Position numbers and translations under genes: made by a program
Part shown: in pieces, positions 8,622 to 35,894 of the stretch
How the letters are laid out: each line of letters starts with the position of its first letter
How positions within the stretch are numbered: position 1 is the first letter of the stretch
DNA from: an uncultured Caldithrix sp.
GTDB lineage: Bacteria; Calditrichota; Calditrichia; RBG-13-44-9
Direction of reading: 5' to 3'
Length of the DNA stretch: 64,000 nt
Assembly (NCBI GenBank): GCA_964461135.1
Contig: CAYWTB010000001.1
Span: forward strand, 8,082-72,081
Notes under the pieces: generated by a model
The model's input: only the letters and a program-made list of their open reading frames with translations
Database searches by the model: none
What the model was told of the DNA's origin: nothing

Positions 8622-11600
8622 CTAAACGGCCTCCTCTTCCAGTAAAAATGCCCTGAGCATGGATTCAATCTGGCGATCCCGGAAATGCTGAATGTCAATG
8701 GCACTGGTGGGACAGAAGGTTGCGCAGGTTCCGCATCCTTTGCAGAGGGCTTCATTAACTGTTGCCAGCATAATTCCACCCCTATCCTGCAGAGAGAGTG
8801 CACCGAATTCACACACTTCCACACAGGTACCGCATCCACGACACAAATCCTCCCTCACAGACGAAACCAGTGGTTCCATCAGAATTGTGGATCTGGCCAG
8901 CAAAGCATCTATTTTTGCGGCCACCGCATTAGCCTGTCCGATGGAATCGGAAATATCCTTGGGGCTCTGTACGCATCCGCAGATAAATACTCCTTCAATA
9001 TTGGTTTCCACCGGACCAAACTTGGGATGCTTTTCCAGTAAATATCCGTCCATACCCACCGGAACTTTTATGAACTGCTGGATATGTTCGATTGAGCCGG
9101 AAGAGGGACGCATGCCGACCGACAGGATCAGAAGATCAACCGGAACTTCTATATCGGTTTTCAAAGATGGTTCCCAAAACCGAAGAGTTTCCACATTCTT
9201 ATGGCCGGTCAGCCGCGGAAGATCCTGCGGCGTAAAGCGTACAAACCTGACTCCCAGCTCCCGGGCCTGCCGGTACATGGTTTCAGCTTCATGGTGATAT
9301 ACCCGGATATCACGGTTAAAAACGGTAACTTCTATTCCCCGCTGCCGTAAAGCAATCGACTGCTTAATGGCCGCCTGGCAGCAATATCTTGAACATTCGG
9401 GCAATCCTTCCGGCCCGCGGGACCCCACGCACTGGATAAATGCCACCTGTTTGATTTCTTTTCCGTCAATGGCCAGCAACTGCTCCTTCTTCAAACGATT
9501 TTCCAGTTCCATGTTGGTGATGACATTTTTATATTTGCCATACCCGAACTCATTCTTGACGGGTTCATATAAACTGAATCCGGTTGCCAGAACAATAGCA
9601 CCCACCATGAACGGTTTATTCTCAGACTTTCCGTTAGTGGATTTCAGAGTGACTTCAAAATTCCCCACGAAACCTTTAATATCCTCAATATCGGTATCTG
9701 TAAATATTTTTACTTTGTCTTTATTTAATTCCTGCACTTTACTCCGGATCAGTTCTTTACCGGACATTCCGCTGGGATAAAGGATCTCCAGCTCTTTTAC
9801 CCATCCTCCCAGGGCCTTGTCTTTTTCCACCAGCAGGACGTTGTAATCCCGTTTTCCCAGCTGAAGCGCCGTTTCAATGCCCGAAATTCCGCCACCGATA
9901 ACCAGCACGTCATGTCCGATTTCCATCTCCTTCGGCTCCAGCGGTTCCAGCTGCCGCACCCTGGCCACCGCCATGCGGAGCAGGTCTTTTGCCTTACGCG
10001 TGGCCGCATCCGCAGCCTGCCCATGAACCCAGGAACATTGATCCCGGATATTAGCCATCTCCAGCAGATAAGGATTAAGGCCCACCTTGCGCAAGGTTTC
10101 CCGGAATATCGGTTCATGAGTACGAGGAGTACAGGCAGCCACCACCACCCGGTTAAGACGGTTAGATAATATTTTTTCCTGTATATTCCTTTGAGTACTC
10201 TCGGCACAGGCGAAGAGGAGATCTTCGGAGAATACCACATCCGGCAATCCGAGCGCATAATCCTTGAGAGTTTCCACATCCAGAACACCGGCGATATTGG
10301 ATCCGCAATGGCACACAAAGACGCCTACCCTCGGAGATCCGCTATAGTCGTATTCCGGGATTTCCTCTTTGATTTCGGGCATTTTATGGTGGGTAAGAAA
10401 CTGGGCGGCTCTCACTGCCGCACCCGAAGCCTCTGCAATAGAATCGGTAATATCCTTGGGACCGGTGGTGCATCCACACAGATAAATGCCTTCACGCCGG
10501 GATGATATGGGATCTCCGCAACGGTCTCTGGGAAGGAAAAATCCGCGGCTATCGGTTTTGATCTCCAGAATTTCCGCCAGGCTGTGGGACTCGGCAGCCG
10601 GTACCACCGCTTCCGATAAAATAACCATGCCGGTGCGCAATTTATCCGTCTGTCCGGTTTCCACATTTTCATTGAGAATGACCAGATCTCTGCTGCCGGG
10701 GTCTTCCACAATGCGGGACGGTTTTCCTCTGATAAAATGAATATTTTTATCGTGTAACGCTCTCTGATAAAATTGTTCAAATCCTTTACCAAATGCACGG
10801 ATGTCAATATAAAAAATATCAACACTGGTCTTGGGATACATTTCGCGTATCAGCAGAGCACTTTTTATGGCGTTCATGCAGCATATTCTGCTGCAGTAAG
10901 GTATATCCCGGCGGATACACCGCGATCCCACGCATTGAATGAATGAGACCCGCTTCGGTGGTTTCTGGTCGGTAAACCTGACTAATTGTCCCCCGGAAGG
11001 GCCGCTGGGACTGAGCAGCCGTTCAAGTTCGATGCTGTTTACCACATTTTCGAAACGTGTATATCCGTATTCGCTGGCCTCCCGCGGATCATAATAATCA
11101 ATACCGGTGGCAATAATGACTGCCCCCACATCAATCTCTTCCGTTCTATCCGGCATATCCAGATCAATGCAATTTTTCTGGCAGACGTCCACGCATTTTC
11201 CGCAGGCAATGGGATTGGTACCAAGACAATCATCGGCAGACCGGATATAGGCGGATGGAACGGCTTGTGAAAATGGAGAGTAAATAGCTCGCCGCAGGCA
11301 TAATCCTTCATCAAACTCATTGGGCTGAACTACAGGACAGACGTCCGAACAATCTCCGCAGGCGGTACATTCCGCTTCATTTACAAATCTGGCTTTACGA
11401 AGAATTTTTGCTCGGAAATTTCCGGCCTTGCCTGAAAGTCTAACAAGTTCTGCATTGGTATACAACTGAATTCTGGGATGCCGACCGACATCCATCATCT
11501 TGGGACCGAGAATTCAGATAGCGCAGTCCATGCTGGGAAAAGTCTTGTCCAGCTTGGCCATGGTTCCACCAATACTGGGCTGCTTTTCCAGCAGGTATAC

Positions 11601-11699
11601 CTGGAATTGGGCATCAGCCAGGTCCAGCGCCGCCTGAATTCCGGAAATACCTGCCCCCACAATCAAAGCACCCTTGGGTCTTTCTGATCTGGAAACCAT
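8622..11699 (-). CDS. hdrA: Tandem-domain heterodisulfide reductase subunit A (HdrA). Selenoprotein with in-frame UGA at 11514..11516. About 1024 aa.
   Basis: The ORF track splits it into 11514..11699 and 8622..11498, but ...[27 protein letters not shown]... is in frame. Architecture: FAD domain ([19 protein letters not shown]), then 2x[4Fe-4S] ferredoxin and a 4-Cys [10 protein letters not shown] domain. A second FAD domain ([15 protein letters not shown]) lacking the Cys/Sec motif and a C-terminal 2x[4Fe-4S] ferredoxin follow. Confidence 0.85.
11463..11513 (-). promoter_or_regulatory. Candidate SECIS hairpin 3' of the UGA (mRNA GGAUG-UCGGUCGG-CAUCC)
   Basis: Stem-loop at 11476..11493. The same element is found after the UGA of the hdrA paralog at 112. 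Confidence 0.35.
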
Positions 11700-11809
11700 A
11701 CTTCCCTTTCCATTTGGAATTTACGTTACGTATATGGATAATTATTGGCTATCCGCAAATTTCAAATTTCAGATTTATGATAAATGACAACCAATAATCG
11801 AGCTTTACA

Positions 11810-12379
11810 TCAGGCAACACTTTTTTTAGGAGACTCCAGCAGACTTTTTCCGTATTGAAAACCGGTTTCAAAGGCTTTTAGATTGAGCTCTTCCGTTCCC
11901 GGAGGAACAGATGTTTCAACGGCTTTTTTGGTAGCCTCATAGGACGTAATCCCGGTAACGGCGGAGAAAAATCCCACCATAATAATATTGGTAACAATCT
12001 TGCGGCCCATTTCTTCCGCCAGGCGGGTGGCCGGAATGGCATAGGTGGAGACTTTTTTTGAATTCTTTGCAAGGTGCACCAGATCCTTTTCCACCAGTAA
12101 TATACCATCCTCCGGAATTTCTCCGCTGAATTTGTCATGCGCATCCCGGGACAGGAGGACTCCTATATTAGGTTGAATAAGGTAGGGGTAAAGAATCTGC
12201 GACTCGGAAATGATAACCTGGGCTGAACAGGAACTCCCGCGCGCTTCAGGTCCGAAACTCTGAATCAGGGTGGAATATTTATTATCATAAATAGCTGCTG
12301 CTTTCCCGATAATATAACCCGCCAGGATAATTCCCTGCCCGCCAAATCCGGCGATACGAATTTCACTGTTTTTCTTCAT
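11810..12379 (-). CDS. 2-oxoacid:ferredoxin oxidoreductase, gamma subunit
   Basis: EIRIAGFGGQGIILAG... Por/Vor/Kor gamma family. 190 aa. Confidence 0.8.
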   Translation of the reverse strand: MKKNSEIRIAGFGGQGIILAGYIIGKAAAIYDNKYSTLIQSFGPEARGSSCSAQVIISESQILYPYLIQPNIGVLLSRDAHDKFSGEIPEDGILLVEKDLVHLAKNSKKVSTYAIPATRLAEEMGRKIVTNIIMVGFFSAVTGITSYEATKKAVETSVPPGTEELNLKAFETGFQYGKSLLESPKKSVA

Positions 12380-13286
12380 GCACAACCCCGTAAGGTTTAA
12401 ATTTGTTCCCTAATTTCTTCTGCAGATATTCATTGTACTGATCCAGATAGGAGGGTTTATCTATATCAATAAATTTCCCAACCTTTATTTCTTCCTGAAA
12501 CTGGATAGAAACATCACGAACATCGGCACCATGTGCTATGACAGAATTATCATGATAAAATTTCATCAGATCCAGACCGCTTCCCAGGCGGTTTTTGCGG
12601 GCGTAGAGAGTTGTACAGGGGCAGATTATTTCCACAAAGGAAAAACCCTTTTTATGCAAGGCTTCATTTATAGAGTTGGTGAGCCGCCTGACGTGCAGGG
12701 CGGTCCAGCGGGCCACGTACACCGCACCACAGGAGGCTGCCAGCAACGGAAGATTAAAGGGATTTTCATAACTCCCATAGGGAGCGGTAGTGGCAATTGC
12801 AGTAAGCGGAGTGGTTGGTGCCAGTTGACCACCGGTCATGGCATATATAAAATTATTAATACACAATACAGTGATATCAAGATTGCGCCTGGCGGTATGG
12901 ATGAAGTGATTGCCTCCGATGGAAATCAGGTCACCATCCCCACTAAAAACCACTACCTTCAGTTTTGGCTTGGCCAGTTTCAGGCCCACGGCAAACGGAA
13001 TGGCACGGCCGTGAGTGGTATGAAAGGAATCCAGTTTAATATAACCGGCGATTCGTCCGCTGCAACCGATCCCGGACACAACACTGATATCCTCCTTTGG
13101 AATCTGTGATTTTTTCACTGCTTCAATAAAACAGGTTACCGCTGTTCCAATTCCGCAGGTCGAACACCAGATATGAGGAATCCGATCCATCCGCAGCCAT
13201 TCCGAGAGAGGATGTTCCGCACCGTTCTCCTGTTCTTTTTTAGTTTTTGTCCCGGGCTTGACTTTTTCGATAACTTCGGCTTTCAT
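12363..13286 (-). CDS. 2-oxoacid:ferredoxin oxidoreductase, beta subunit (TPP-binding)
   Basis: WCSTCGIG...GIGCSGR...GDGD TPP-binding motifs. Start ATG overlaps the alpha stop (ATGA). Confidence 0.85.
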   Translation of the reverse strand: MKAEVIEKVKPGTKTKKEQENGAEHPLSEWLRMDRIPHIWCSTCGIGTAVTCFIEAVKKSQIPKEDISVVSGIGCSGRIAGYIKLDSFHTTHGRAIPFAVGLKLAKPKLKVVVFSGDGDLISIGGNHFIHTARRNLDITVLCINNFIYAMTGGQLAPTTPLTAIATTAPYGSYENPFNLPLLAASCGAVYVARWTALHVRRLTNSINEALHKKGFSFVEIICPCTTLYARKNRLGSGLDLMKFYHDNSVIAHGADVRDVSIQFQEEIKVGKFIDIDKPSYLDQYNEYLQKKLGNKFKPYGVVHEEKQ

Positions 13287-28707: not shown

Positions 28708-29575
28708 ATGAATAGAATATTAATATTTTTCACTGGCCTGGCTATGGTTGTGATGATATCGGCCGCTTTCAGTCAGATTCCTAATTCCGGCTTCGAACAA
28801 TGGGCAGCCGGCAATCCGGTGGGTTGGGCAACTCCCAATTCACCCGGCTTTTTTGTTCCCATTACTCAATCCACTGATGCCCACTCAGGAACATATGCCG
28901 TTAAGGGGCAAGTGGTGAATTTTGTTGGACTGGCCATTTCTCCCAGCCTGGTATCCGGTGATTCTCTCGGAGGTTTCAGCTTTAACCAGCGGCCGGCAGC
29001 ATTGCAGGGTTATTACAAGTACTCTCCGGTGGGGGGAGATCTTTTCTTTGCCACTGCCATATTTTATTCACAGGGGATGGGGATTGCCTTTGGCGAGATA
29101 TTAATTTCCAATACTGCCACAGGTTATACTCAGTTTACGGTCAATCTCGATTATTTCAGTAATGACCTCCCGGACACCTGCTACCTCCATATTCTTTATT
29201 GCAGATACAGCCACGGGTGAATCCCACGTAGGATCCACCTTCTGGCTGGATGACCTTTCGTTCTCCGGGACGGTGGGTATTGCTGATAACCAGCCTGCGC
29301 CGGTACCTGCCGGGTATGTTCTTTTCCAGAACTTTCCTAACCCGTTCAATCCCTCCACTACCATCTCTTTTAATCTGCCGGAGCCGTCAAATGTGACTCT
29401 GGTAATCTATAACAGCATCGGTCAGGAAGTAAGCCGTCCGATCAATCACGAAATACTTGGCACGGGAAACCATTCCGTCAATTGGTCTGCCCAGGATTTA
29501 CCCAGTGGAATCTATTTTTACCATCTGATCAGCGAAGCAGGCATGCTCAACCGCAGGATGATTCTGATGAAATAA
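28708..29575 (+). pseudogene. Secreted protein with T9SS C-terminal sorting domain, split by a +1 frameshift near 29185-29200
   Basis: Signal peptide at 28708. Frame 1 ends at 29220 and frame 2 continues from 29162 through FQNFPNPFNPSTTISFNLP...GIYFYHLI (T9SS CTD). Confidence 0.6.
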
Positions 29576-29735: not shown

Positions 29736-30422
29736 TTACAATGGCTCAATTTCCCTGGTGAGAAATCCGGAAGTGCTCACTAATACCACGTACTGTTTGG
29801 CATCATCCGATGCCTGAAAAACGGCATTTCCATAAACGCTGTTTACGAACGGTAATTCCGGTCCATATTCATAAAGATATCTCCACAGGGGATCATTTTC
29901 CTTTTTAACCAGCGAATAAATAGTCGGTTGCCGGTTGATTTCATCTTCCGTACTAAGATACCTGCCACGAAGCCGGGTTAAGCGGTAGCGTGTCCCCAGA
30001 CCCATGAAATTCATCCAGTTATCCCATTTCAAAATATCACCTTCCAGAACCCATTGATCTCCCCGGATTAAGTACTGGCTGGTGATCTGGGAATCGGGAG
30101 AAAAGTACTGGATAAGCGTTAAACGGCTGGTGTGGTCATCAGTTACCGGTTCAACGATTACCCGGGCAACCGCCCTCTCCAATGTAAACGAATGGTAGGC
30201 CTGCAGAAAAAATCCGGCGAACATCACTACTGAAAAAACTGAAATCCAGAGAACCAGCAGGATTAAATTCCGAAAGCCGGCCAGTATTTTGGGGGAACCA
30301 GCTTTTTTCCTTCGAATTACCTTCAACATCCATCTTAATCGCCGGTACAACAGAAAAAATATGGATAATACTCCCAGAAGCAAACCGGCCATTCCGATAT
30401 AAACATAATTATCTGGAGCCAT
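29736..30422 (-). CDS. Hypothetical membrane protein
   Basis: N-terminal TM helix plus a second TM. No recognisable domain. Confidence 0.4.
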   Translation of the reverse strand: MAPDNYVYIGMAGLLLGVLSIFFLLYRRLRWMLKVIRRKKAGSPKILAGFRNLILLVLWISVFSVVMFAGFFLQAYHSFTLERAVARVIVEPVTDDHTSRLTLIQYFSPDSQITSQYLIRGDQWVLEGDILKWDNWMNFMGLGTRYRLTRLRGRYLSTEDEINRQPTIYSLVKKENDPLWRYLYEYGPELPFVNSVYGNAVFQASDDAKQYVVLVSTSGFLTREIEPL

Positions 30423-30573
30423 GATATGTATAATCCTATATTTAAATAACTTTCGAAAATATATCCTCCGGATTAAAGCCGGTTAATTCATCCGGAAGAC
30501 GAACCTGCAAGAAATTTTGTTATTACAAAATTACATTGATTTCTATTATAAGCAATAATAAATTTTCTTTACA

Positions 30574-30738
30574 CCGTTGGGGGTGGGAGTGACTGATTCT
30601 ATTAAGGATAACAATGACTCCAGGTATTAACTCGGTTTGAAGGTCCCCGCTTGGAAATAAATCCTGACTTTTGCATCAGTCTCCCCTGAGAAAATACCCC
30701 TCGAACCTGATCCGGATAACACCGGCGGAGGGAAACGG
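30574..30738 (+). promoter_or_regulatory. TPP (THI-box) riboswitch with extended P3 stem
   Basis: CCGTT P1 strand, GGGGGTG, long P3 insert, ...CCCTGAGAAAATACCCCTCGAACCTGATCCGGATAACACCGGCGGAGGGAA, AACGG closing P1. Confidence 0.8.
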
Positions 30739-30768
30739 GCATCGTTTACCGATTTTCCCGATAAATGA

Positions 30769-30799
30769 AACCGTTCCCGGCCATGAACGGTTTTTTTGT
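30769..30799 (+). terminator. Intrinsic terminator (riboswitch expression platform)
   Basis: AACCGTTC-ccggccat-GAACGGTT followed by TTTTTTT. Confidence 0.75.
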
Positions 30800-30825
30800 T
30801 TTATAAAAAAGAGGAGGAAGAAGTG

Positions 30826-31884
30826 AAACAGCTACCGGATATCGGCAAGGTCTCTTCGGAGATTTTTGACGAAATCATCTTACCACAGCTGGGACGCAAG
30901 CGTCCCGAGGTAATAGTAGGCCCCAGGCATGGGGTGGATGTCGGCGTCACGGATCTGGGCCATAATCAGGTAATGGTTACCACCACCGATCCTGTATTTG
31001 TGGTACCTCCTTACGGATGGGAACGCTCGGGGTGGTTTGCAATTCATATTCTGGCTTCGGATGCCGCCACATCCGGCTTACCCCCCCGATACATCACCAT
31101 GGATCTCAATTTGCCCTTATCCATAACCCGCAATGAATTCGAGTCCCTGTGGCAGGTGATGCACCGTGAGTGTGACAAGATCGGGATGGCGGTAATTTCC
31201 GGACATACCGGGCGCTACGAGGGCTGTGATTACCCGATGATCGGGGGGGCTACCGTCATATGTACCGGGCCCAGAGAAGGCTATGTCACTCCCGAAATGG
31301 CCCGGACGGGAGATCAGATTATCGTTACCAAAGGGGCTGCCATCGAAGCCGCAGGATTATTTGCAGTTACTTTTACAGAAAAAGTGGCTCAAAAATATGA
31401 CCAGCAAACAGCCAGAGAGGCAGAGGACATCTTCTGGCAGATGTCGGTGGTGGAAGATGCGCTCACTGCCGTTCAGGCTGGAGTGCGGGAAAAGGGCGTG
31501 ACGGCAATGCATGATGCCACCGAATGCGGCGTATGGGGAGGGCTGGTGGAAGTTGCCCAGGCATCAAATGTGGGGATGGTGATAGACAAAGATAAAATCA
31601 TTGTGCAGGATGTTGTGAGGAAGGTATGCAATCTGTTCGCTATAGATCCTTTCAGTTCCATCAGTGAGGGAACACTGATAATTACCTGCAGGCCTGAGAA
31701 AGCCAGGGAAGTGGTGGATCGCCTGGCGGACCGCAATATCATCTCCAGCATTATCGGGGAAATCGTTGAACCGCAAAAGGGACTTCATTATTATCAACAG
31801 GGAAAAGAACATGAACTGGTCCATCCCCGGGTAGATCCGTTCTGGTCAGCGTTTGGCAAGGCTGCCTCTCAAGCTGGCAAGTAA
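30826..31884 (+). CDS. AIR-synthase-related (PurM-like) protein of unknown function. First gene of the thiamin operon.
   Basis: PurM-like N- and C-domains (GVDVGVTDLG..., ...GHTGRYEG...). GTG start placed after AAGAGGAGGAAGAA, since the upstream MFYKKEEEE extension overlaps the RBS. Confidence 0.6.
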   Translation, partial: KQLPDIGKVSSEIFDEIILPQLGRKRPEVIVGPRHGVDVGVTDLGHNQVMVTTTDPVFVVPPYGWERSGWFAIHILASDAATSGLPPRYITMDLNLPLSITRNEFESLWQVMHRECDKIGMAVISGHTGRYEGCDYPMIGGATVICTGPREGYVTPEMARTGDQIIVTKGAAIEAAGLFAVTFTEKVAQKYDQQTAREAEDIFWQMSVVEDALTAVQAGVREKGVTAMHDATECGVWGGLVEVAQASNVGMVIDKDKIIVQDVVRKVCNLFAIDPFSSISEGTLIITCRPEKAREVVDRLADRNIISSIIGEIVEPQKGLHYYQQGKEHELVHPRVDPFWSAFGKAASQAGK

Positions 31885-31924: not shown

Positions 31925-32614
31925 ATGAGTAATGCAGAGTATTACCAGCAGATTCGTAAACGATCCGATAAATTATGGCAGGCCATATTCAGCCATCCCT
32001 TTGTCCGGGGGATCGGAGACGGTTCCCTGTCCCGGAAACGCTATGAGTTCTATCTGAAACAGGATTATGTTTATTTGATTGATTTCAGCCGGGTTTTTGC
32101 CCTGGCCAGCGCCAAGGCCTGGATTCTGGAGGATATGGGCTATTTTGCCACCTTGCTGAATGCCACACTCACCATGGAAATGGATCTGCATCGCAAAACC
32201 TGCGCTTCTTTCGGCATTTCTTCAGGAACTCTTGAAAAAACAGAAAAGAGCATGATCACCTCTGCCTATTCCAATCTCCTGGTACGGACCTGTTATGAAG
32301 GAAACATGGCAGATATTTTAGCGGTTTTGTTACCCTGTGCCACTGGTTATATTGAGATTGGTAAGCAGCTGAATGCCGCAGGGCTTTCGGAGAATGAATT
32401 TTACCGGAACTGGATTCTGACCTATTCTTCACAGGAATTTGAAGATCTGACCAACTGGCTGATAAACAGAATGAATCAGTTTGCAGTAGCGGCCCCGCAA
32501 AACAGGAAAGAATACTGGTATAAGCTCTATCGGGCCAGCACGCGATTCGAATATCTGTTTTTTGACATGAGCTGGAATATGCATTTATGGCCGAAGGCAA
32601 TTATCAGCGATTAA
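31925..32614 (+). CDS. tenA: TenA-family thiaminase II / aminopyrimidine aminohydrolase
   Basis: TenA/THI-4 family helical bundle sequence. ATG preceded by GGAGG. Confidence 0.7.
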   Translation: MSNAEYYQQIRKRSDKLWQAIFSHPFVRGIGDGSLSRKRYEFYLKQDYVYLIDFSRVFALASAKAWILEDMGYFATLLNATLTMEMDLHRKTCASFGISSGTLEKTEKSMITSAYSNLLVRTCYEGNMADILAVLLPCATGYIEIGKQLNAAGLSENEFYRNWILTYSSQEFEDLTNWLINRMNQFAVAAPQNRKEYWYKLYRASTRFEYLFFDMSWNMHLWPKAIISD

Positions 32615-32626
32615 TATCATACTAAA

Positions 32627-33292
32627 ATGAATTACGGAAATAATATTTCTGCTTTCGTGCGAACCTGGCACCTCTATGTCATCACCGATGAACATCTCGG
32701 CCAGGGGAAATCACATCTGGAAATCGCCCGGGAATCCCTGGCGGGTGGAGCGGATGTCATCCAATTGCGCGATAAATCCGCCGGTGGATTACAACTGTAC
32801 CAGACCGGTAAGGCACTGAGAGATTTAACCCGCCGTGTAGGAGCCCATTTTATTGTGAATGATCGCATTGATATTGCCCTGGCCACCGATGCCGACGGTG
32901 TGCATGTGGGACAGGCCGATCTGCCGGCCCGGGTTGCCCGCCGATTGATTGGTCCCGGGAAAATCCTGGGAGTATCCGCATCATCACTGGAAGAAGCTCT
33001 TCGGGCCAGGGATGATGGTGCAGATTATCTGGGCGTAGGTCCGGTCTTTGAGGCCAGGAGTACAAAATCAGATGCCGGGAATCCACTGGGATTGTCCCTT
33101 ATATCCAGTATCCGGCAACAGTGTGATCTGCCCATCGTTGCTATTGGAGGTATAAATGCGGATAACCTGCCCGATGTGCTGCAGGCAGGTGCTGACGCGG
33201 TTGCTGTAGTTTCCGCTGTGGTTGCTTCGCAGGATATCCCGGAAACCGCCCGCAAACTTAAAGAAATCATTCTCTCCTGGAAAGGCCGATGA
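32627..33292 (+). CDS. thiE: Thiamine-phosphate synthase
   Basis: HLYVITD...GADVIQLRDK...GVGPVF...IGGI ThiE TIM-barrel motifs. Confidence 0.85.
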   Translation: MNYGNNISAFVRTWHLYVITDEHLGQGKSHLEIARESLAGGADVIQLRDKSAGGLQLYQTGKALRDLTRRVGAHFIVNDRIDIALATDADGVHVGQADLPARVARRLIGPGKILGVSASSLEEALRARDDGADYLGVGPVFEARSTKSDAGNPLGLSLISSIRQQCDLPIVAIGGINADNLPDVLQAGADAVAVVSAVVASQDIPETARKLKEIILSWKGR

Positions 33293-34329
33293 TGAAATTA
33301 CTGAACAAACCGGTATCCAGCATGGGTGAATTTACGCTCATCGACCGAATTAAGAAAATCCTTCCTGAGGTGGATAGTCCGGAAATCCTTCTGGGGATGG
33401 GAGATGATTGTGCAGTGATCCGCCTTGACGATAACAGGGCCATGCTTCTTACCTGTGATATTCAGATGGAAAACCGGCATTTCCGGCGGCAGTTCATTAC
33501 CTTTTATCAACTGGGACATCGGGCCGTGGCGGTAAATCTCAGTGATATTGCCTCCATGGGAGGAAGGCCTACTTACGCGCTGGTGTCCCTGGGCCTGCCG
33601 CAGGATATGACCGTAAAAGAGTATGATATGCTTTTCCAAGGAATGCGGGATGAGCTTGAAACTTACCATACCATAATCGTGGGCGGAAATCTGGCTCAAT
33701 CGGAAAACGGACTCATCATTGATATTACCCTGCTGGGAGAAGTACGGGTATCCCAATATGTAACCAGAAGCGGTGCCAGGCCGGGAGACAAAATATATAT
33801 TACCGGCCAAACCGGCGCCTCCGGGGCGGGACTCATTATCCTTCAGAGATACGGTAAAAATTACCCCGTAAAATATAAAGATCTGGTGGCTGCCCATTTG
33901 AATCCACGGCCACGGGTGGAGATTGGTCAGGTCATCGCCAGACTGGGACTGGCGTCCGCCATGATTGATGTGAGCGACGGCATTGCCGGTGACCTCCACC
34001 ATATCTGCAGCATGAGCCGAACAGGGGCTGATATTTATCAGGAAAAACTGCCTTTTGCCGACATATTAAATGAGGTTGCCGGAGAAACCGGCCATTCTGT
34101 CCTGGATATGGTGCTGCACAGCGGTGAAGATTATGAACTGCTGTTTACTGCCAACCCGGACCAGTCAGATAAAATCCAAAACCACATTTGTAAACCATTC
34201 TCCATTCCTGTTACCGAGATCGGACAGATTCTGCCCGCAGACAATGGCTATTGTATTGTTACCCCGGATAATCAGCGACATGATCTGGAAGCAAGAGGAT
34301 GGGATCATTTCAAGGCCAATCAAGGCTGA
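33289..34329 (+). CDS. thiL: Thiamine-monophosphate kinase
   Basis: GEFTLIDRI...GDDCAV ThiL N-terminus. PurM-like fold. Confidence 0.8.
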   Translation: MMKLLNKPVSSMGEFTLIDRIKKILPEVDSPEILLGMGDDCAVIRLDDNRAMLLTCDIQMENRHFRRQFITFYQLGHRAVAVNLSDIASMGGRPTYALVSLGLPQDMTVKEYDMLFQGMRDELETYHTIIVGGNLAQSENGLIIDITLLGEVRVSQYVTRSGARPGDKIYITGQTGASGAGLIILQRYGKNYPVKYKDLVAAHLNPRPRVEIGQVIARLGLASAMIDVSDGIAGDLHHICSMSRTGADIYQEKLPFADILNEVAGETGHSVLDMVLHSGEDYELLFTANPDQSDKIQNHICKPFSIPVTEIGQILPADNGYCIVTPDNQRHDLEARGWDHFKANQG

Positions 34330-34345
34330 GAAGGGAGAAGTGAAC

Positions 34346-35146
34346 ATGATAAAAAAAGCATTGACAATTGCGGGATCAGACAGCGGCGGAGGGGCCGGGA
34401 TACAGGCGGATCTGAAAACGTTCACGGTCTTCGGTGTCTATGGCATGTCCGCCATAACCGCTTTAACGGCACAAAACACAGTGGGAGTACAAGGAATTTT
34501 TGAAATTACCCCTCAATTTGTGCATGAACAGATCAAAAGCATCATGACGGATATCGGCACCGATGCAGCCAAGACCGGCATGCTCTCCAGCGAGGAAATT
34601 GTTCACACAGTCGCCAAAGCTGTCAAGAAATTTAATATTCCCAACCTGGTAGTGGATCCGGTGATGGTCGCCAAGAGTGGTGATTCCTTGCTTTCCGAAA
34701 ATGCCCGGAAAGCCGTTTACCAGGAACTTCTGCCCCTGGCCAGAGTAATTACACCCAACATTTTTGAGGCTGAGGCACTTCTGGAAAAGAAAATTGAGAA
34801 TCTGGAAGCGATGAAGCAGGCCGCCGCCGATCTGAAAACCGTTGGTTGTGAATGGGTTGTGTTGAAAGGGGGGCATCTTGATATTCAGTCCCAGGCGATT
34901 GATGTTGTCTATAACGGATCGGAATTCAATCTGCTTAAATCCGTCCGTTTTGATTCCAAAAATACTCACGGTACCGGTTGTACCTTCGCTTCTGCCATTG
35001 CAGCGGGGCTGGCAAAAGGCAAAGAACCATTGCAAGCCATAAAAACAGCCAAAGAGTATATTACCGAAGCCATACGTAGCGGATTGCCCCTGGGAAAAGG
35101 CCACGGACCCGCCAATCATCTGGTGGGGATTAAATCCCGCTGGTAA
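34346..35146 (+). CDS. thiD: Hydroxymethylpyrimidine/phosphomethylpyrimidine kinase
   Basis: ALTIAGSDSGGGAGIQADLKT ThiD signature. ATG at 34346 after AAGGGAGAAG. Confidence 0.85.
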   Translation: MIKKALTIAGSDSGGGAGIQADLKTFTVFGVYGMSAITALTAQNTVGVQGIFEITPQFVHEQIKSIMTDIGTDAAKTGMLSSEEIVHTVAKAVKKFNIPNLVVDPVMVAKSGDSLLSENARKAVYQELLPLARVITPNIFEAEALLEKKIENLEAMKQAAADLKTVGCEWVVLKGGHLDIQSQAIDVVYNGSEFNLLKSVRFDSKNTHGTGCTFASAIAAGLAKGKEPLQAIKTAKEYITEAIRSGLPLGKGHGPANHLVGIKSRW

Positions 35147-35198: not shown

Positions 35199-35894
35199 AT
35201 GAAAAACCGTTCTGCATTGCTTGCCGGCGCTACTGGCCTTGTGGGCGGCCACTGTCTGACTTTCCTGCAGGAAATGCCCGATATTGCAGAGATCAGGGTT
35301 CTCACCCGCCGGCCGTTAACCGTTAATCATCCCAAAATCAGGGAACATGTAGTCGATTTTAACCATCTGGATCAATACAGAGACATCATTACGGCAGACC
35401 ATATCTTCTGCTGCCTGGGAACTACCATAAAAAAGGCTGGTAGCCGTGAAGCATTCCAACTGGTCGATTATGATTATCCCTACCGGATAGCGGAAATTGC
35501 TGCCAAGAATGGTGCCGAAAATTTTCTGCTGGTATCAGCACTGGGTGCAAATCCGAAATCAAAAATTTTTTACAACCGGGTAAAGGGGGAACTGGAGAAG
35601 GCTGTTTCCTCTTTACCGTTTGCCGGTATTTTGATCTTTCACCCTTCTCTTCTACTTGGCCAGCGGGAGGAGTTTCGTGCCGGTGAAAAAGCGGGGGCAT
35701 TTCTGTTCAGGCTGGTCAGTCCCTTTCTGGCCGGAAAACTGACAAAATATCGTCCAATCCAGGCGCAAGCGGTTGCCAAAGCCATGGTTTATATGGCTCC
35801 GACACGATTAAAGGGCGTGCATATTTTTGAATCCGACCAGATTAAGTTCTTTGCAAATCGATTAAGCAATGCGCAGAGAATGGAACACCGTTAA
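35199..35894 (+). CDS. NAD(P)H-binding atypical SDR / HTATIP2-like oxidoreductase
   Basis: LLAGATGLVGGH Rossmann motif. 231 aa. Confidence 0.6.
   Translation: MKNRSALLAGATGLVGGHCLTFLQEMPDIAEIRVLTRRPLTVNHPKIREHVVDFNHLDQYRDIITADHIFCCLGTTIKKAGSREAFQLVDYDYPYRIAEIAAKNGAENFLLVSALGANPKSKIFYNRVKGELEKAVSSLPFAGILIFHPSLLLGQREEFRAGEKAGAFLFRLVSPFLAGKLTKYRPIQAQAVAKAMVYMAPTRLKGVHIFESDQIKFFANRLSNAQRMEHR

Follow-up and report, generated by a model that had tools for sequence, protein, structure and literature searches.

A thiamin-linked family of PurM-superfamily proteins, represented by the first gene of a thiamin operon in an uncultured Caldithrix sp.

Introduction

Why should a thiamin operon that already encodes a bona fide thiamine-monophosphate kinase (ThiL) begin with the gene of another, divergent protein of the PurM superfamily? 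The operon in question lies on a stretch of 64,000 nucleotides from an uncultured Caldithrix sp., which was analysed as a whole and which we refer to as the window. It comprises five genes, X, TenA, ThiE, ThiL and ThiD, of which X is the first. An earlier note, made from the sequence alone, had attributed to X an undescribed ATP-dependent step in thiamin salvage, such as that of a kinase for the thiazole or pyrimidine moiety in place of a missing ThiM.

How thiamin is made and salvaged is regarded as largely settled. The family of X nevertheless has no assigned function, although it comprises thousands of proteins, is controlled by TPP riboswitches and is in some cases fused to the coupling enzyme. 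Full-text searches found no description of it in the literature. As detailed below, we are confident that X has a role in thiamin metabolism, and it is best explained as the founding example of an uncharacterised, thiamin-dedicated clade of the PurM/ThiL/HypE/SelD superfamily.

Results and Discussion

Gene X and its operon

X (30823–31884, forward strand) encodes a protein of 353 residues with four characteristic motifs: an N-terminal GK, GHTG, MHDATE(C/G)G and a C-terminal DP(F/Y)W. The earlier note had placed the gene at 30826–31884; the gene is real, but its start is likely the GTG at 30823, one codon further 5′, which is preceded at a distance of 5 nt by the Shine-Dalgarno sequence AGGAGG (30812–30817, forward strand). 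The public gene call for an identical protein (P0001) also has 353 residues, and a start at 30826 is therefore one codon short.

The remaining genes follow on the same strand: TenA, a thiaminase II or aminopyrimidine aminohydrolase (31925–32614; PF03070 145 bits, TIGR04306 169.5 bits with a cut-off of 130), the thiamine-phosphate synthase ThiE (32627–33292; PF02581 210 bits, TIGR00693 207.6 against 145.1), ThiL (33289–34329; TIGR01379 298.7 against 184.15), whose gene overlaps the thiE stop by 4 nt, and the HMP/HMP-P kinase ThiD (34343–35146; PF08543 336 bits, TIGR00097 351.8 against 204.95). These scores bear out the earlier identification of ThiL and of a co-operonic thiaminase II, thiE and thiD. 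No ThiM was found within the 64-kb window.

Relationship of X to the PurM superfamily

X matched the Pfam families AIRS (PF00586, 43.3 bits, cut-off 24) and AIRS_C (PF02769, 87.6 bits, cut-off 23.1), both above the gathering score. Its AF2 model (pLDDT 94.8) has a predicted two-domain PurM fold, and Foldseek searches with this model retrieved HypE, ThiL, SelD and PurM, all with a probability of 1.0. X is thus a member of the PurM superfamily, and the divergence that the earlier note had ascribed to it is evident from the NCBIfam equivalogs, none of which it passes (HypE 86.3 against 251.6 bits, ThiL 82.6 against 184.15, SelD 56.5 against 125). No PurM model was among the NCBIfam matches at E ≤ 0.01, the PurM match in a sequence search of the PDB reached only E 0.45, and PurM ranked below HypE, ThiL and SelD in Foldseek. 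We considered and rejected a dedicated AIR synthase feeding ThiC, X being far from PurM, fused to ThiN and found in operons without ThiC. The Pfam search yielded no match to the HK family (PF02110), to which ThiM belongs.

JGI annotations label X homologues "hydrogenase expression/formation protein HypE", and HypE tops both the PDB sequence search and the Foldseek search, as would be expected if X were an orthologue of HypE or SelD without any connection to thiamin. However, the equivalog scores lie far under their cut-offs and the signature residues are missing at both ends of the protein. In an alignment with E. coli HypE, the C-terminal end of X (...DPFWSAFGKAASQAGK) has no equivalent of the PRIC cysteine, which carries the carbamoyl or cyano group, and Cys17 and Cys19 of SelD are without counterpart in X, whose N-terminal loop contains neither Cys nor Sec. 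The earlier note had been right on the absence of these cysteines, although K9 of X still aligns with a SelD lysine (see last section). Further, no Hyp or Sel partner family is among the 25 Pfam families met most often in 150 operon mates of X, no selenium-utilisation genes were found near X in its loci, and TPP riboswitch control and linkage to ThiE and ThiN are pervasive. The orthology that could have overturned the proposal of the earlier note is rejected on these three grounds of score, signature residues and neighbours, and we count this reading as refuted.

No cysteine is conserved across the family: ThiN fusions and distant members have neither C135 nor C235. We considered the cysteines of X as a persulfide or Fe-S site and dropped the idea, as they are confined to the core clade.

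The active site resembles that of ThiL. An hhalign comparison (99.8%) places D39, D56, D80, D231, T233 and E234 of X onto D39, D57, D86, D227, S229 and D230 of ThiL, and the C-terminal DPFW of X onto the DHF of ThiL; the catalytic aspartate constellation and the D-x-S-D motif of ThiL are both matched in X. A structural study of A. baumannii ThiL offered no acceptor-site residues that could be carried over to X. ThiL being among its nearest relatives by sequence and by fold, X might be a second, divergent TMP kinase, and in ThiE-X and ThiN-X pairs the two enzymes could then catalyse consecutive steps. This ThiL isozyme is nevertheless very improbable: X scores far below the ThiL equivalog, has GHTG in place of the ThiL GGN and possesses an extra N-terminal GK loop, and a bona fide ThiL occurs in the same operon or cluster at 12 loci, including the window and an archaeal locus (L087, 194.6 bits). 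With a separate ThiL alongside at these 12 loci, X is not a replacement of ThiL.

The leader of the window operon

Upstream of X, the leader contains a variant TPP (THI-box) aptamer (30641–30751, forward strand). It scored 36.4 bits with RF00059 (E 2e-5 in 701 nt), short of the gathering score of 54.3 bits, and a scan at the gathering score accordingly gave no match in the window leader. A canonical CUGAGA and P4/P5 3′ half (41 bits with an nhmmer profile of the 3′ half) are combined with an aberrant P2/P3 5′ half that carries a 30-nt insertion. The ligand-binding core (CUGAGA; ACCUGAUCYGGAUAAURCCRGCG...GGGA) is intact and is followed by an expression platform, in which an intrinsic terminator (30767–30804, forward strand) was located by a terminator scan and an MFE fold; it consists of a 10-bp stem with an 8-nt loop (30767–30794) and a T-tract. 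The window leader aligns with those of three other loci (L004, L102, L118; Rfam 70–76 bits), retaining the 3′ half, the CUGAGA and the terminator, and the terminator stem and T-tract are conserved across six orthologous leaders. Of the TPP control proposed in the earlier note, the assignment by Rfam score thus fails for the window leader, whereas the core and the terminator are kept in common with orthologous leaders that pass Rfam.

Judged from base complementarity, the 5′ arm of the terminator (AAACCGTTCC) could alternatively pair with the 3′ strand of aptamer P1 (GGGAAACGG), forming a putative antiterminator. Such alternative pairing would make the leader a putative TPP "OFF" attenuator, whose switching is uncertain given the aberrant P2/P3. 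Two overlapping, weak sigma-70-like promoter candidates lie upstream of the leader (30522–30559, forward strand; consensus scan, 9/12 matches each); as the count of such matches does not exceed the shuffled expectation, they are candidates only.

Spread of the family and its TPP control

The X family comprises more than 5,000 proteins from many phyla, among them Calditrichia, Deltaproteobacteria, Planctomycetota, Chloroflexota, Actinomycetota, Omnitrophota, WOR-3, Elusimicrobia, Ignavibacteriota and Bacillota, as well as from some archaea (DPANN). We sampled 179 X-centred loci (1.89 Mb), of which 167 were scanned for TPP aptamers and 160 near-full ones were used for the analysis of partners. 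Due to the variability of P3, aptamers were detected with an nhmmer profile of the invariant 3′ half, supplemented by Rfam spot checks. Genes were called by a conservation-weighted choice, since longest-ORF calls gave antisense shadow genes at high GC.

The scan found 58 TPP aptamer cores in the 167 loci, all on the strand of X and upstream of X or its operon, and none elsewhere in these loci; 17 of 20 sampled loci passed the Rfam check, with 55–76 bits. The comparative genomics that the earlier note had recommended, namely of PurM-like genes behind TPP riboswitches, therefore speaks for it. The commonest architecture behind the riboswitch is X alone. The genes downstream of such solitary units were inspected as possible transporters and discarded as unrelated: they belong to a lysine-aminomutase/ATP-grasp cluster (L025, L132), to an RND efflux system (L038) or to MacB/FtsX ABC systems (L030, L036). 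Even distant members of the family (28–42% identity) are linked to ThiE, ThiT and MTH1187-type thiamine-binding proteins.

Neighbours and fusions of X

In the 160 near-full loci, X is accompanied by ThiE (51), ThiD (19), TenA (14), ThiL (12), ThiN (6) and ThiC (5). ThiE (19) also leads when the 150 operon mates are sorted by Pfam family, with true ThiD at 7, TenA at 6 and ThiC at 3; NifS is another recurrent partner in this count. The ThiN cases are mostly fusions to X, in both domain orders (P0126, P0184, P0147, L081), while X adjoins a separate ThiN in L046. Of the 12 loci with ThiL, 7 have ThiD and 9 have ThiE as well. X is also found in de novo operons with ThiC (L037, L053, L056, L087); while the link to thiamin that the earlier note had drawn stands, "salvage" is too narrow a term for it.

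ThiM, ThiG, ThiS and ThiH were absent from all 179 loci, and no thiazole transporter was seen adjoining X in the loci examined. Weak phmmer matches to "ThiG" proved to be TIM-barrel cross-matches to ThiE and PdxS. Operons that combine X with ThiD and ThiL therefore have all steps to TPP except a source of thiazole phosphate.

A different place in the pathway, that of an HMP-P kinase (HMP-P to HMP-PP) linking ThiC to ThiE or ThiN by a phosphate-to-diphosphate transfer of the ThiL type, is suggested by two loci (L087, L089), in which ThiC-ThiL faces X-ThiN and X occupies the usual place of ThiD, with no ThiD within 8 kb. X also adjoins ThiC in L037 and L056, the genes that share its operons all belong to the pyrimidine branch if ThiE and ThiL are set aside, and the acidic E234, aligned to D230 of ThiL, would suit a Mg-bridged anionic acceptor. 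We nonetheless hold this role to be improbable, since the window and 18 other loci each have, in one operon with X, a full-length ThiD scoring above the cut-off of the equivalog for the bifunctional HMP/HMP-P kinase, which would leave X redundant.

Other partners are less easily placed. In 34 of the 160 loci, spread over at least three phyla, X has NifS or NifU as a neighbour, with a TPP riboswitch separating the two in L026, L031, L131 and L149. The NifS-linked copies of X come essentially from one Dehalococcoidia-like clade and from Omnitrophota, and the remaining genes around them serve generic Fe-S or sulfur housekeeping; much of this linkage may be inherited synteny. Two SAM-methyltransferase families and a Trm112-like protein occur in X operons of very distant clades, the methyltransferases in only about 12 loci, and MnmA follows a ThiN-X fusion in L086. 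A simple kinase role leaves the recurrent NifS/NifU, methyltransferase and Trm112-like partners unexplained. A PfkB kinase downstream of ThiE-X in Actinomycetota was dropped as a candidate aminoimidazole-riboside or HMP kinase; it co-occurs with Indigoidine_A/PsuG, best matches ribokinase-type models and probably phosphorylates pseudouridine or a sugar.

Proposed function

With riboswitches at 58 of 167 loci and with fusion or adjacency to ThiN and ThiE, the core claim of the earlier note, an undescribed ATP-dependent step of thiamin metabolism, is supported. For the reaction itself we infer kinase chemistry and a substrate by elimination. X shares operons with bona fide ThiD at 19 loci and with bona fide ThiL at 12, and is therefore unlikely to duplicate either; their presence, together with the absence of ThiM, is the pattern expected for a ThiM stand-in. 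Our preferred, though tentative, candidate is an ATP-dependent kinase that converts 4-methyl-5-(2-hydroxyethyl)thiazole (HET) to thiazole phosphate (THZ-P), and possibly also thiamin to TMP. That the coupling enzyme is the main partner of X (ThiE 51 and ThiN 6 loci, against 12 for ThiL) may be likened to thiM-thiE pairs.

Such a kinase would bind ATP and Mg2+ through its ThiL-like aspartate constellation and move the γ-phosphate onto the hydroxyethyl group of the thiazole moiety, yielding what ThiE or ThiN takes as its second substrate. The enzyme would fill the place of ThiM without being homologous to it and might accept thiamin too, and TPP would shut off its expression through the riboswitch-terminator leader. 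The window operon would then encode a route from salvage to cofactor, in which TenA produces HMP from the aminopyrimidine, ThiD converts HMP to HMP-PP, X converts HET to THZ-P, ThiE couples the two, and ThiL phosphorylates TMP to TPP.

Known acceptors in the PurM superfamily are an amide carbonyl oxygen, phosphate and selenide; none of its members is known to phosphorylate an alcohol. Beside the lack of an adjoining thiazole transporter and the recurrent partners that a simple kinase does not explain, two further observations count against HET as the substrate: the position of X in L087 and L089, near ThiC and ThiL, is that of ThiD in archaeal ThiD-ThiN fusions, and the location of X directly after the thiamine transporter ThiT (YuaJ) in L178, along with the 12 loci near ThiL, suits thiamin as substrate at least as well.

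X would in the latter case be a thiamin kinase (thiamin + ATP to TMP + ADP), a non-homologous counterpart of enterobacterial ThiK that feeds ThiL in the salvage of imported thiamin. The acceptor hydroxyl is identical to that of HET, and the ThiL catalytic residues and C-terminal motif make a pocket for the thiamin skeleton plausible. X-ThiL-ThiD operons without ThiE (L001, L009), an MTH1187/YkoF-type thiamine-binding protein adjoining X in at least four loci, and the presence of X in reduced-genome lineages (DPANN archaea, Omnitrophota, WOR-3, Dehalococcoidia) point in the same direction. Yet ThiE and ThiN dominate (57 loci including fusions) over ThiL (12 loci, 9 of them with ThiE), and a thiamin kinase would act in parallel to the coupling enzyme, not in series with it. 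Further, ThiT in L178 is the single transporter link found, and such a function would not account for the complete absence of genes of the thiazole branch near X. We consider this function unlikely.

The same absence, in conjunction with the sulfur-related neighbours, would accord with a novel reaction in which X uses ATP to act on the thiazole or thiazolium part, for example a cyclodehydration or a sulfur-dependent thiazole step. PurM, PurL and HypE all use ATP to activate an amide or formyl oxygen, X retains the SelD-like K9 and GH(T/S), and the NifS/NifU, MnmA, methyltransferase and Trm112-like partners described above would find a place. On the other hand, a persulfide acceptor is unlikely in a family without a conserved cysteine, NifS-linked X is nearly a single clade whose signal may be inherited, the methyltransferases are few, and there is no established candidate substrate. 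We find such a reaction doubtful, and rather doubtful also the wider view of X as no simple kinase but an enzyme for the synthesis or repair of the vitamin's sulfur-containing half. In the form of repair, one may picture X reclosing, in the manner of PurM, a thiazole or thiazolium whose ring was opened by degradation, as in the N-formyl-thiol. In the form of synthesis, a third route to thiazole phosphate, independent of ThiG and Thi4, might take its sulfur from the neighbouring cysteine desulfurase and use the co-operonic methyltransferase. Methyltransferase, Trm112-like or cysteine-desulfurase partners may cooperate with X in a reaction of this kind.

Implications

Once assigned, the reaction of X would close a gap in the reconstructions of the vitamin B1 pathway from which auxotrophy and cross-feeding are predicted, be it in sediments, in groundwater or in anaerobic communities. 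The assignment would also mend a systematic annotation error, the widespread mislabelling as HypE, and widen the chemistry of the PurM superfamily, either by its first alcohol kinase or by something newer.

Comparison with known systems

HypE, the carbamoyl dehydratase of [NiFe]-hydrogenase maturation (TIGR02124; 2Z1E, 3WJP), is the closest match to X in sequence (E 6e-11) and in fold (Foldseek E 8e-23, TM about 0.75). The two have a similar xDATxGG motif and the stretch VCxL(F/L)GxDP in common, but X has Glu for the Arg of HypE in DAT(E/R)GG and GHTG for GDTK, is under TPP control and lacks hyp neighbours. With the selenide water dikinase SelD (TIGR00476; 3U0O), X shares a GH(T/S) motif and a lysine, K9, which aligns with K20 of SelD; its recurrent NifS-type neighbour recalls how NifS-like lyases deliver selenium to SelD.

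ThiL (TIGR01379; 3C9T, 5CM7) resembles X in its two-domain PurM fold (Foldseek TM 0.65–0.78), its catalytic constellation, its aromatic C-terminal motif, its pathway and often its operon, but is only about 22–26% identical to it, besides the differences in the GHTG motif and the GK loop.

The hydroxyethylthiazole kinase ThiM, with its unrelated, ribokinase-like fold (PF02110), can be a functional analogue of X only, the activity of X on HET being putative. X has the usual operon position of thiM and its partners tenA, thiD and thiE, yet it is found together with ThiC too, and in reduced genomes as a solitary gene behind a riboswitch. In S. aureus, thiM lies in a tenA-thiM-thiD-thiE operon (PMC2766623). 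The position of thiM next to thiD in E. coli thiMD is also like that of X.

Archaeal ThiD-ThiN proteins (PRK08573), whose C-terminal domain is matched by the ThiN domain of L087 and L089, likewise join ThiN to a thiamin-pathway enzyme that depends on ATP, but their partner is a ThiD of ribokinase fold in place of the PurM-fold X, which is fused to ThiN in both orders. Yeast THI6 is a fusion of ThiE and ThiM, and to it the X-ThiN fusions form a parallel.

The PurM-superfamily protein and its operon

The first gene of the thiamin operon encodes a protein, X, with both domains of the PurM superfamily (Pfam AIRS, 43 bits; AIRS_C, 88 bits). Its open reading frame had been flagged in the earlier note and is real, but its start is most likely not at 30826: a GTG at 30823, with AGGAGG in front of it (30812-30817), gives 353 residues (30823-31884, + strand), the length in the public gene call of an identical protein (P0001). 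X is followed in the same orientation, at junctions that are short or overlap, by TenA (thiaminase II; 31925-32614; TIGR04306, 169.5), ThiE (32627-33292; TIGR00693, 207.6), ThiL (33289-34329; TIGR01379, 298.7) and ThiD (34343-35146; TIGR00097, 351.8), just as the earlier note had read them, including the genuine nature of ThiL. X is only 25% identical to this ThiL and falls below every NCBIfam equivalog cut-off (HypE, 86.3 vs 251.6; ThiL, 82.6 vs 184.15; SelD, 56.5 vs 125), with no match to PurM in the same scan. These scores speak against orthology to HypE or SelD, a possibility that had been raised against a new function.

Beyond thiD, after 53 nt, lies the gene of a 231-residue NmrA/epimerase-type NAD(P)-binding protein (35199-35894, + strand). 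It is separated from thiD by no terminator match and may be co-transcribed with the operon; no other X locus contains a homologue and, as far as Pfam shows, the protein is not of the classical-SDR OarX type (PMC11223231). Divergent from the operon is the gene of a 228-residue predicted membrane protein without Pfam match (29736-30422, − strand), of which a 67%-identical copy occupies the equivalent place in the orthologous locus L004. Two overlapping reading frames of 170 and 137 residues (28708-29575, + strand), the second with a Por_Secre_tail (T9SS sorting) domain, are either one frameshifted gene or two short genes; the split is also seen in an independent Logan contig (L003).

TPP riboswitches

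In gathering mode, Rfam gave no match in the window, and a focused scan placed a TPP aptamer (RF00059) at 30641-30751 with 36.4 bits (cut-off 54.3, E 2e-5). Its CUGAGA element and P4/P5 are canonical, whereas P2/P3 on the 5' side is aberrant and carries an insertion of 30 nt. The 5' arm of the terminator (30767-30804, + strand; a 10-bp hairpin plus T-tract) is complementary to the 3' strand of P1, which we read as the usual layout of a TPP 'OFF' attenuator. The aligned leaders of five close orthologues (L004, L001, L102, L103, L118) share the 3' half of the aptamer and the terminator, AAACCGTTCC...GGAACGGTTTTTTT; three of these leaders score 70.8-74.1 bits, demonstrating riboswitch control of orthologous loci at the Rfam level. 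Judged from this conservation and from the orthologous leaders that pass Rfam, the window operon is probably riboswitch-controlled as well; the riboswitch claimed for it earlier has an intact aptamer core and is followed by a terminator, but its score is sub-threshold.

The comparison of PurM-like genes behind TPP riboswitches, which the earlier note had suggested, drew on 179 X loci (1.89 Mb; 80 from named genomes, 80 from metagenomes and about 20 via exact-protein look-ups). Scanning 167 loci with an nhmmer profile built on the invariant half of the aptamer yielded 58 cores, all on the strand of X and upstream of it or of the operon containing it, and none elsewhere in these loci; Rfam confirmed 17 of 20 sampled loci at gathering score (55-76 bits). 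Most commonly, X stands alone behind the riboswitch. The closest relatives with a bare X-ThiE pair (L090-L098, 77-79% identity to the window protein) have no detectable core upstream of it, in contrast to both the window and the loci of the X-TenA-ThiE-ThiL-ThiD type.

Family and active site

Relatives of X number more than 5,486 at E ≤ 1e-10; after 50% clustering, there are 365 representatives at ≤ 1e-30. The best 120 of the former are 74-84% identical, come from Calditrichia, Deltaproteobacteria, Deferrimicrobiaceae and KSB1, and carry no label other than 'AIR synthase family protein' or an automatic 'HypE'. The confident AlphaFold model of X (pLDDT 94.8) is about equally distant from HypE, ThiL and SelD in Foldseek (TM 0.65-0.79, 17-22% identity), with PurM more remote; a PDB sequence search found no closer structure, and full-text literature searches no description of the family. 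The family is a separate and widely distributed branch of an established superfamily, and its role in a known pathway is probably new. A Dehalococcoidales MAG carries tandem copies with identical tblastn scores (L028:8978-10015 and 11360-12397), which could be a true duplication or an assembly repeat.

An alignment of 34 sequences, down to 28% identity, shows K9, D39, D56-P57, D80, H128 (GHTG), H230-D231, E234, G236, D338 and W341 to be invariant. When the profile of X is aligned with that of the co-operonic ThiL proteins (99.8% probability), D39, D56, D80 and D231 superimpose onto ThiL D39, D57, D86 and D227, T233 onto S229, E234 onto D230, and the C-terminal D338-P-F-W341 onto D339-H340-F341. 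HypE has an arginine in place of E234, and GHTG corresponds to GDTK in HypE, GGN in ThiL and GGHS in SelD. K9 aligns with SelD K20, but Cys17 and Cys19 of SelD have no counterpart in X, nor does the terminal PRIC cysteine of HypE, so that X indeed lacks the signature cysteines of both.

Four other cysteines (C117, C135, C235, C269) are conserved in a core clade (112 of 160 sequences) and may make up a redox or metal site peculiar to that clade; two of them flank active-site motifs. The ThiN fusions P0147 and P0184 and most of the distant members lack C135 and C235, and the cysteines are therefore not essential for the thiamin-linked function. Among TPP/ThiE-linked copies that show the CCGC pattern, most have glycine at position 235.

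Thiamin genes next to X

Within 2.5 kb of X, the 160 loci with a near-full X encode ThiE (51 loci), NifS or NifU (34), ThiD (19), TenA (14), ThiL (12), ThiN (6), ThiC (5) and a methyltransferase detected by the type B probe (4), and the order was the same in an unbiased count of the Pfam families of 150 operon mates. The window-type order X-TenA-ThiE-ThiL-ThiD occurs in at least 8 loci; X-ThiE, X-ThiL-ThiD, X-ThiE-ThiD-TenA and, across Actinomycetota, [TPP]-ThiE-X are recurrent, and cultured Rosettibacter primus has [TPP]-ThiC-X-ThiD-ThiE. We consider it very likely that X works in thiamin metabolism. In six Actinomycetota loci (L052, L055, L062, L066, L074, L083) a PfkB-family kinase follows [TPP]-ThiE-X, and some such loci also have an Indigoidine_A/PsuG gene; the two are probably a pseudouridine kinase/glycosidase pair unrelated to thiamin.

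X is also fused to ThiN, as X-ThiN in P0126 and P0184 and as ThiN-X in P0147 (L086) and a Micrarchaeota locus (L081); in L046 a separate ThiN gene follows X. The coupling enzyme thus dominates among the partners, whether adjacent to X or fused to it in either order, which points to an action of X directly before or after coupling. In two archaeal-looking loci (L087, L089), X-ThiN faces ThiC and a ThiL scoring above the equivalog cut-off (194.6 vs 184.15). That X takes the place of ThiD in a ThiN fusion next to ThiC would suit an HMP-P kinase, and the presence of ThiL among the nearest relatives of X would suit a ThiL isozyme. Yet ThiD and ThiL are themselves encoded beside X, both of them in 7 loci, which makes an HMP(-P) kinase improbable and a second TMP kinase more improbable still.

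Searches with E. coli ThiM, ThiG, ThiS and ThiH (tblastn and phmmer) gave no genuine match in any of the loci or the window, their weak matches being cross-matches to ThiD, ThiE or PdxS; the one ThiF/MoeB-like gene is in L024, 9 kb away from X. Of the steps leading to TPP, the only one missing from these X operons is the supply of thiazole phosphate.

Sulfur, methyltransferase and thiamine-binding partners

The cysteine desulfurase beside X (Aminotran_5, often with NifU; also in L023) is very frequent in one Dehalococcoidia-like clade and occurs in Omnitrophota and Aminicenantes. NifS-NifU-X is found in L020, L021, L024, L026, L031-L033, L126, L130, L136, L137, L141, L151, L154 and L155, and NifS-X-BirA in Omnitrophota (L058, L061, L070). 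Other neighbors in this clade are generic Fe-S and sulfur housekeeping genes (NifU, PP-loop ATPase, FdhD, MOSC, NadA, ferredoxin). By neighbor-joining ordering, the TPP/ThiE-linked L026, L031, L128, L131, L149 and L150 nest within the clade, and L026, L031, L131 and L149 have a bona fide TPP riboswitch between NifS/NifU and X. We take most of this adjacency to be inherited synteny, though it may instead reflect an actual connection to sulfur, and chiefly on its account we keep a sulfur-related role of X open.

Distant members (L170-L174, L181; 28-34% identity) show the order methyltransferase-X-ThiE-Trm112-like, and L178 (42% identity to the window protein) ThiT(YuaJ)-X-Trm112-like; one sampled member, P0144 (36% identity), has no thiamin neighbor. 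The class-I SAM-methyltransferases directly upstream of X belong to two unrelated families, 27% identical to each other: type A in L170-L174 and L181, type B in L011, L017, L104, L106 and L002. Their stop often overlaps the start of X, and a TPP riboswitch precedes the pair in L011, L104 and L106. We know of no methylation step in thiamin synthesis or salvage. The Trm112-like zinc-ribbon protein (about 90 residues, CPxD...CxxCxRYYPI; L171:4495-4767, L178:3036-3311, L181:8642-8917) is encoded last in the operons of the distant clade, in L178 without a methyltransferase; such proteins are activator partners of methyltransferases. Together with NifS/NifU, the methyltransferase and Trm112 partners would fit a new ATP-dependent thiazole chemistry, a reading that we regard as less likely than the kinase for the thiazole moiety proposed below and about as likely as a thiamin kinase. 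In L002, a cyanate lyase gene (CynS; L002:7530-7976) lies 24 nt upstream of X in a window-type operon, a single occurrence, curious in light of the cyanide chemistry of HypE.

The only transporter link among X loci is the ThiT/YuaJ thiamine-transporter S-component gene directly upstream of X in L178 (L178:1345-1887). An MTH1187/YkoF-type thiamine-binding protein (TIGR00106) adjoins X divergently in L175-L177, L015:3562-3849 and L120:2-139, and is near it in L002:12912-13190; several of these loci are unrelated.

Function of X

On the most economical reading, X would phosphorylate the hydroxyethyl group of the thiazole moiety in place of ThiM; we propose this reaction tentatively, at somewhat below even chances. 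Thiamin itself, a larger substrate with the same acceptor hydroxyl, is a less likely alternative, to which the ThiT, ThiL and MTH1187 links and the ThiL-like pocket would point. Both proposals are weakened because no PurM-superfamily enzyme is known to act as a kinase on a hydroxyl group. The main thrust of the earlier note, an undescribed ATP-dependent step, is supported, but not its restriction to salvage.

If X stands in for ThiM, its association with ThiD mirrors thiMD of E. coli, and X operons mirror the tenA-thiM-thiD-thiE operon of S. aureus (PMC2766623).
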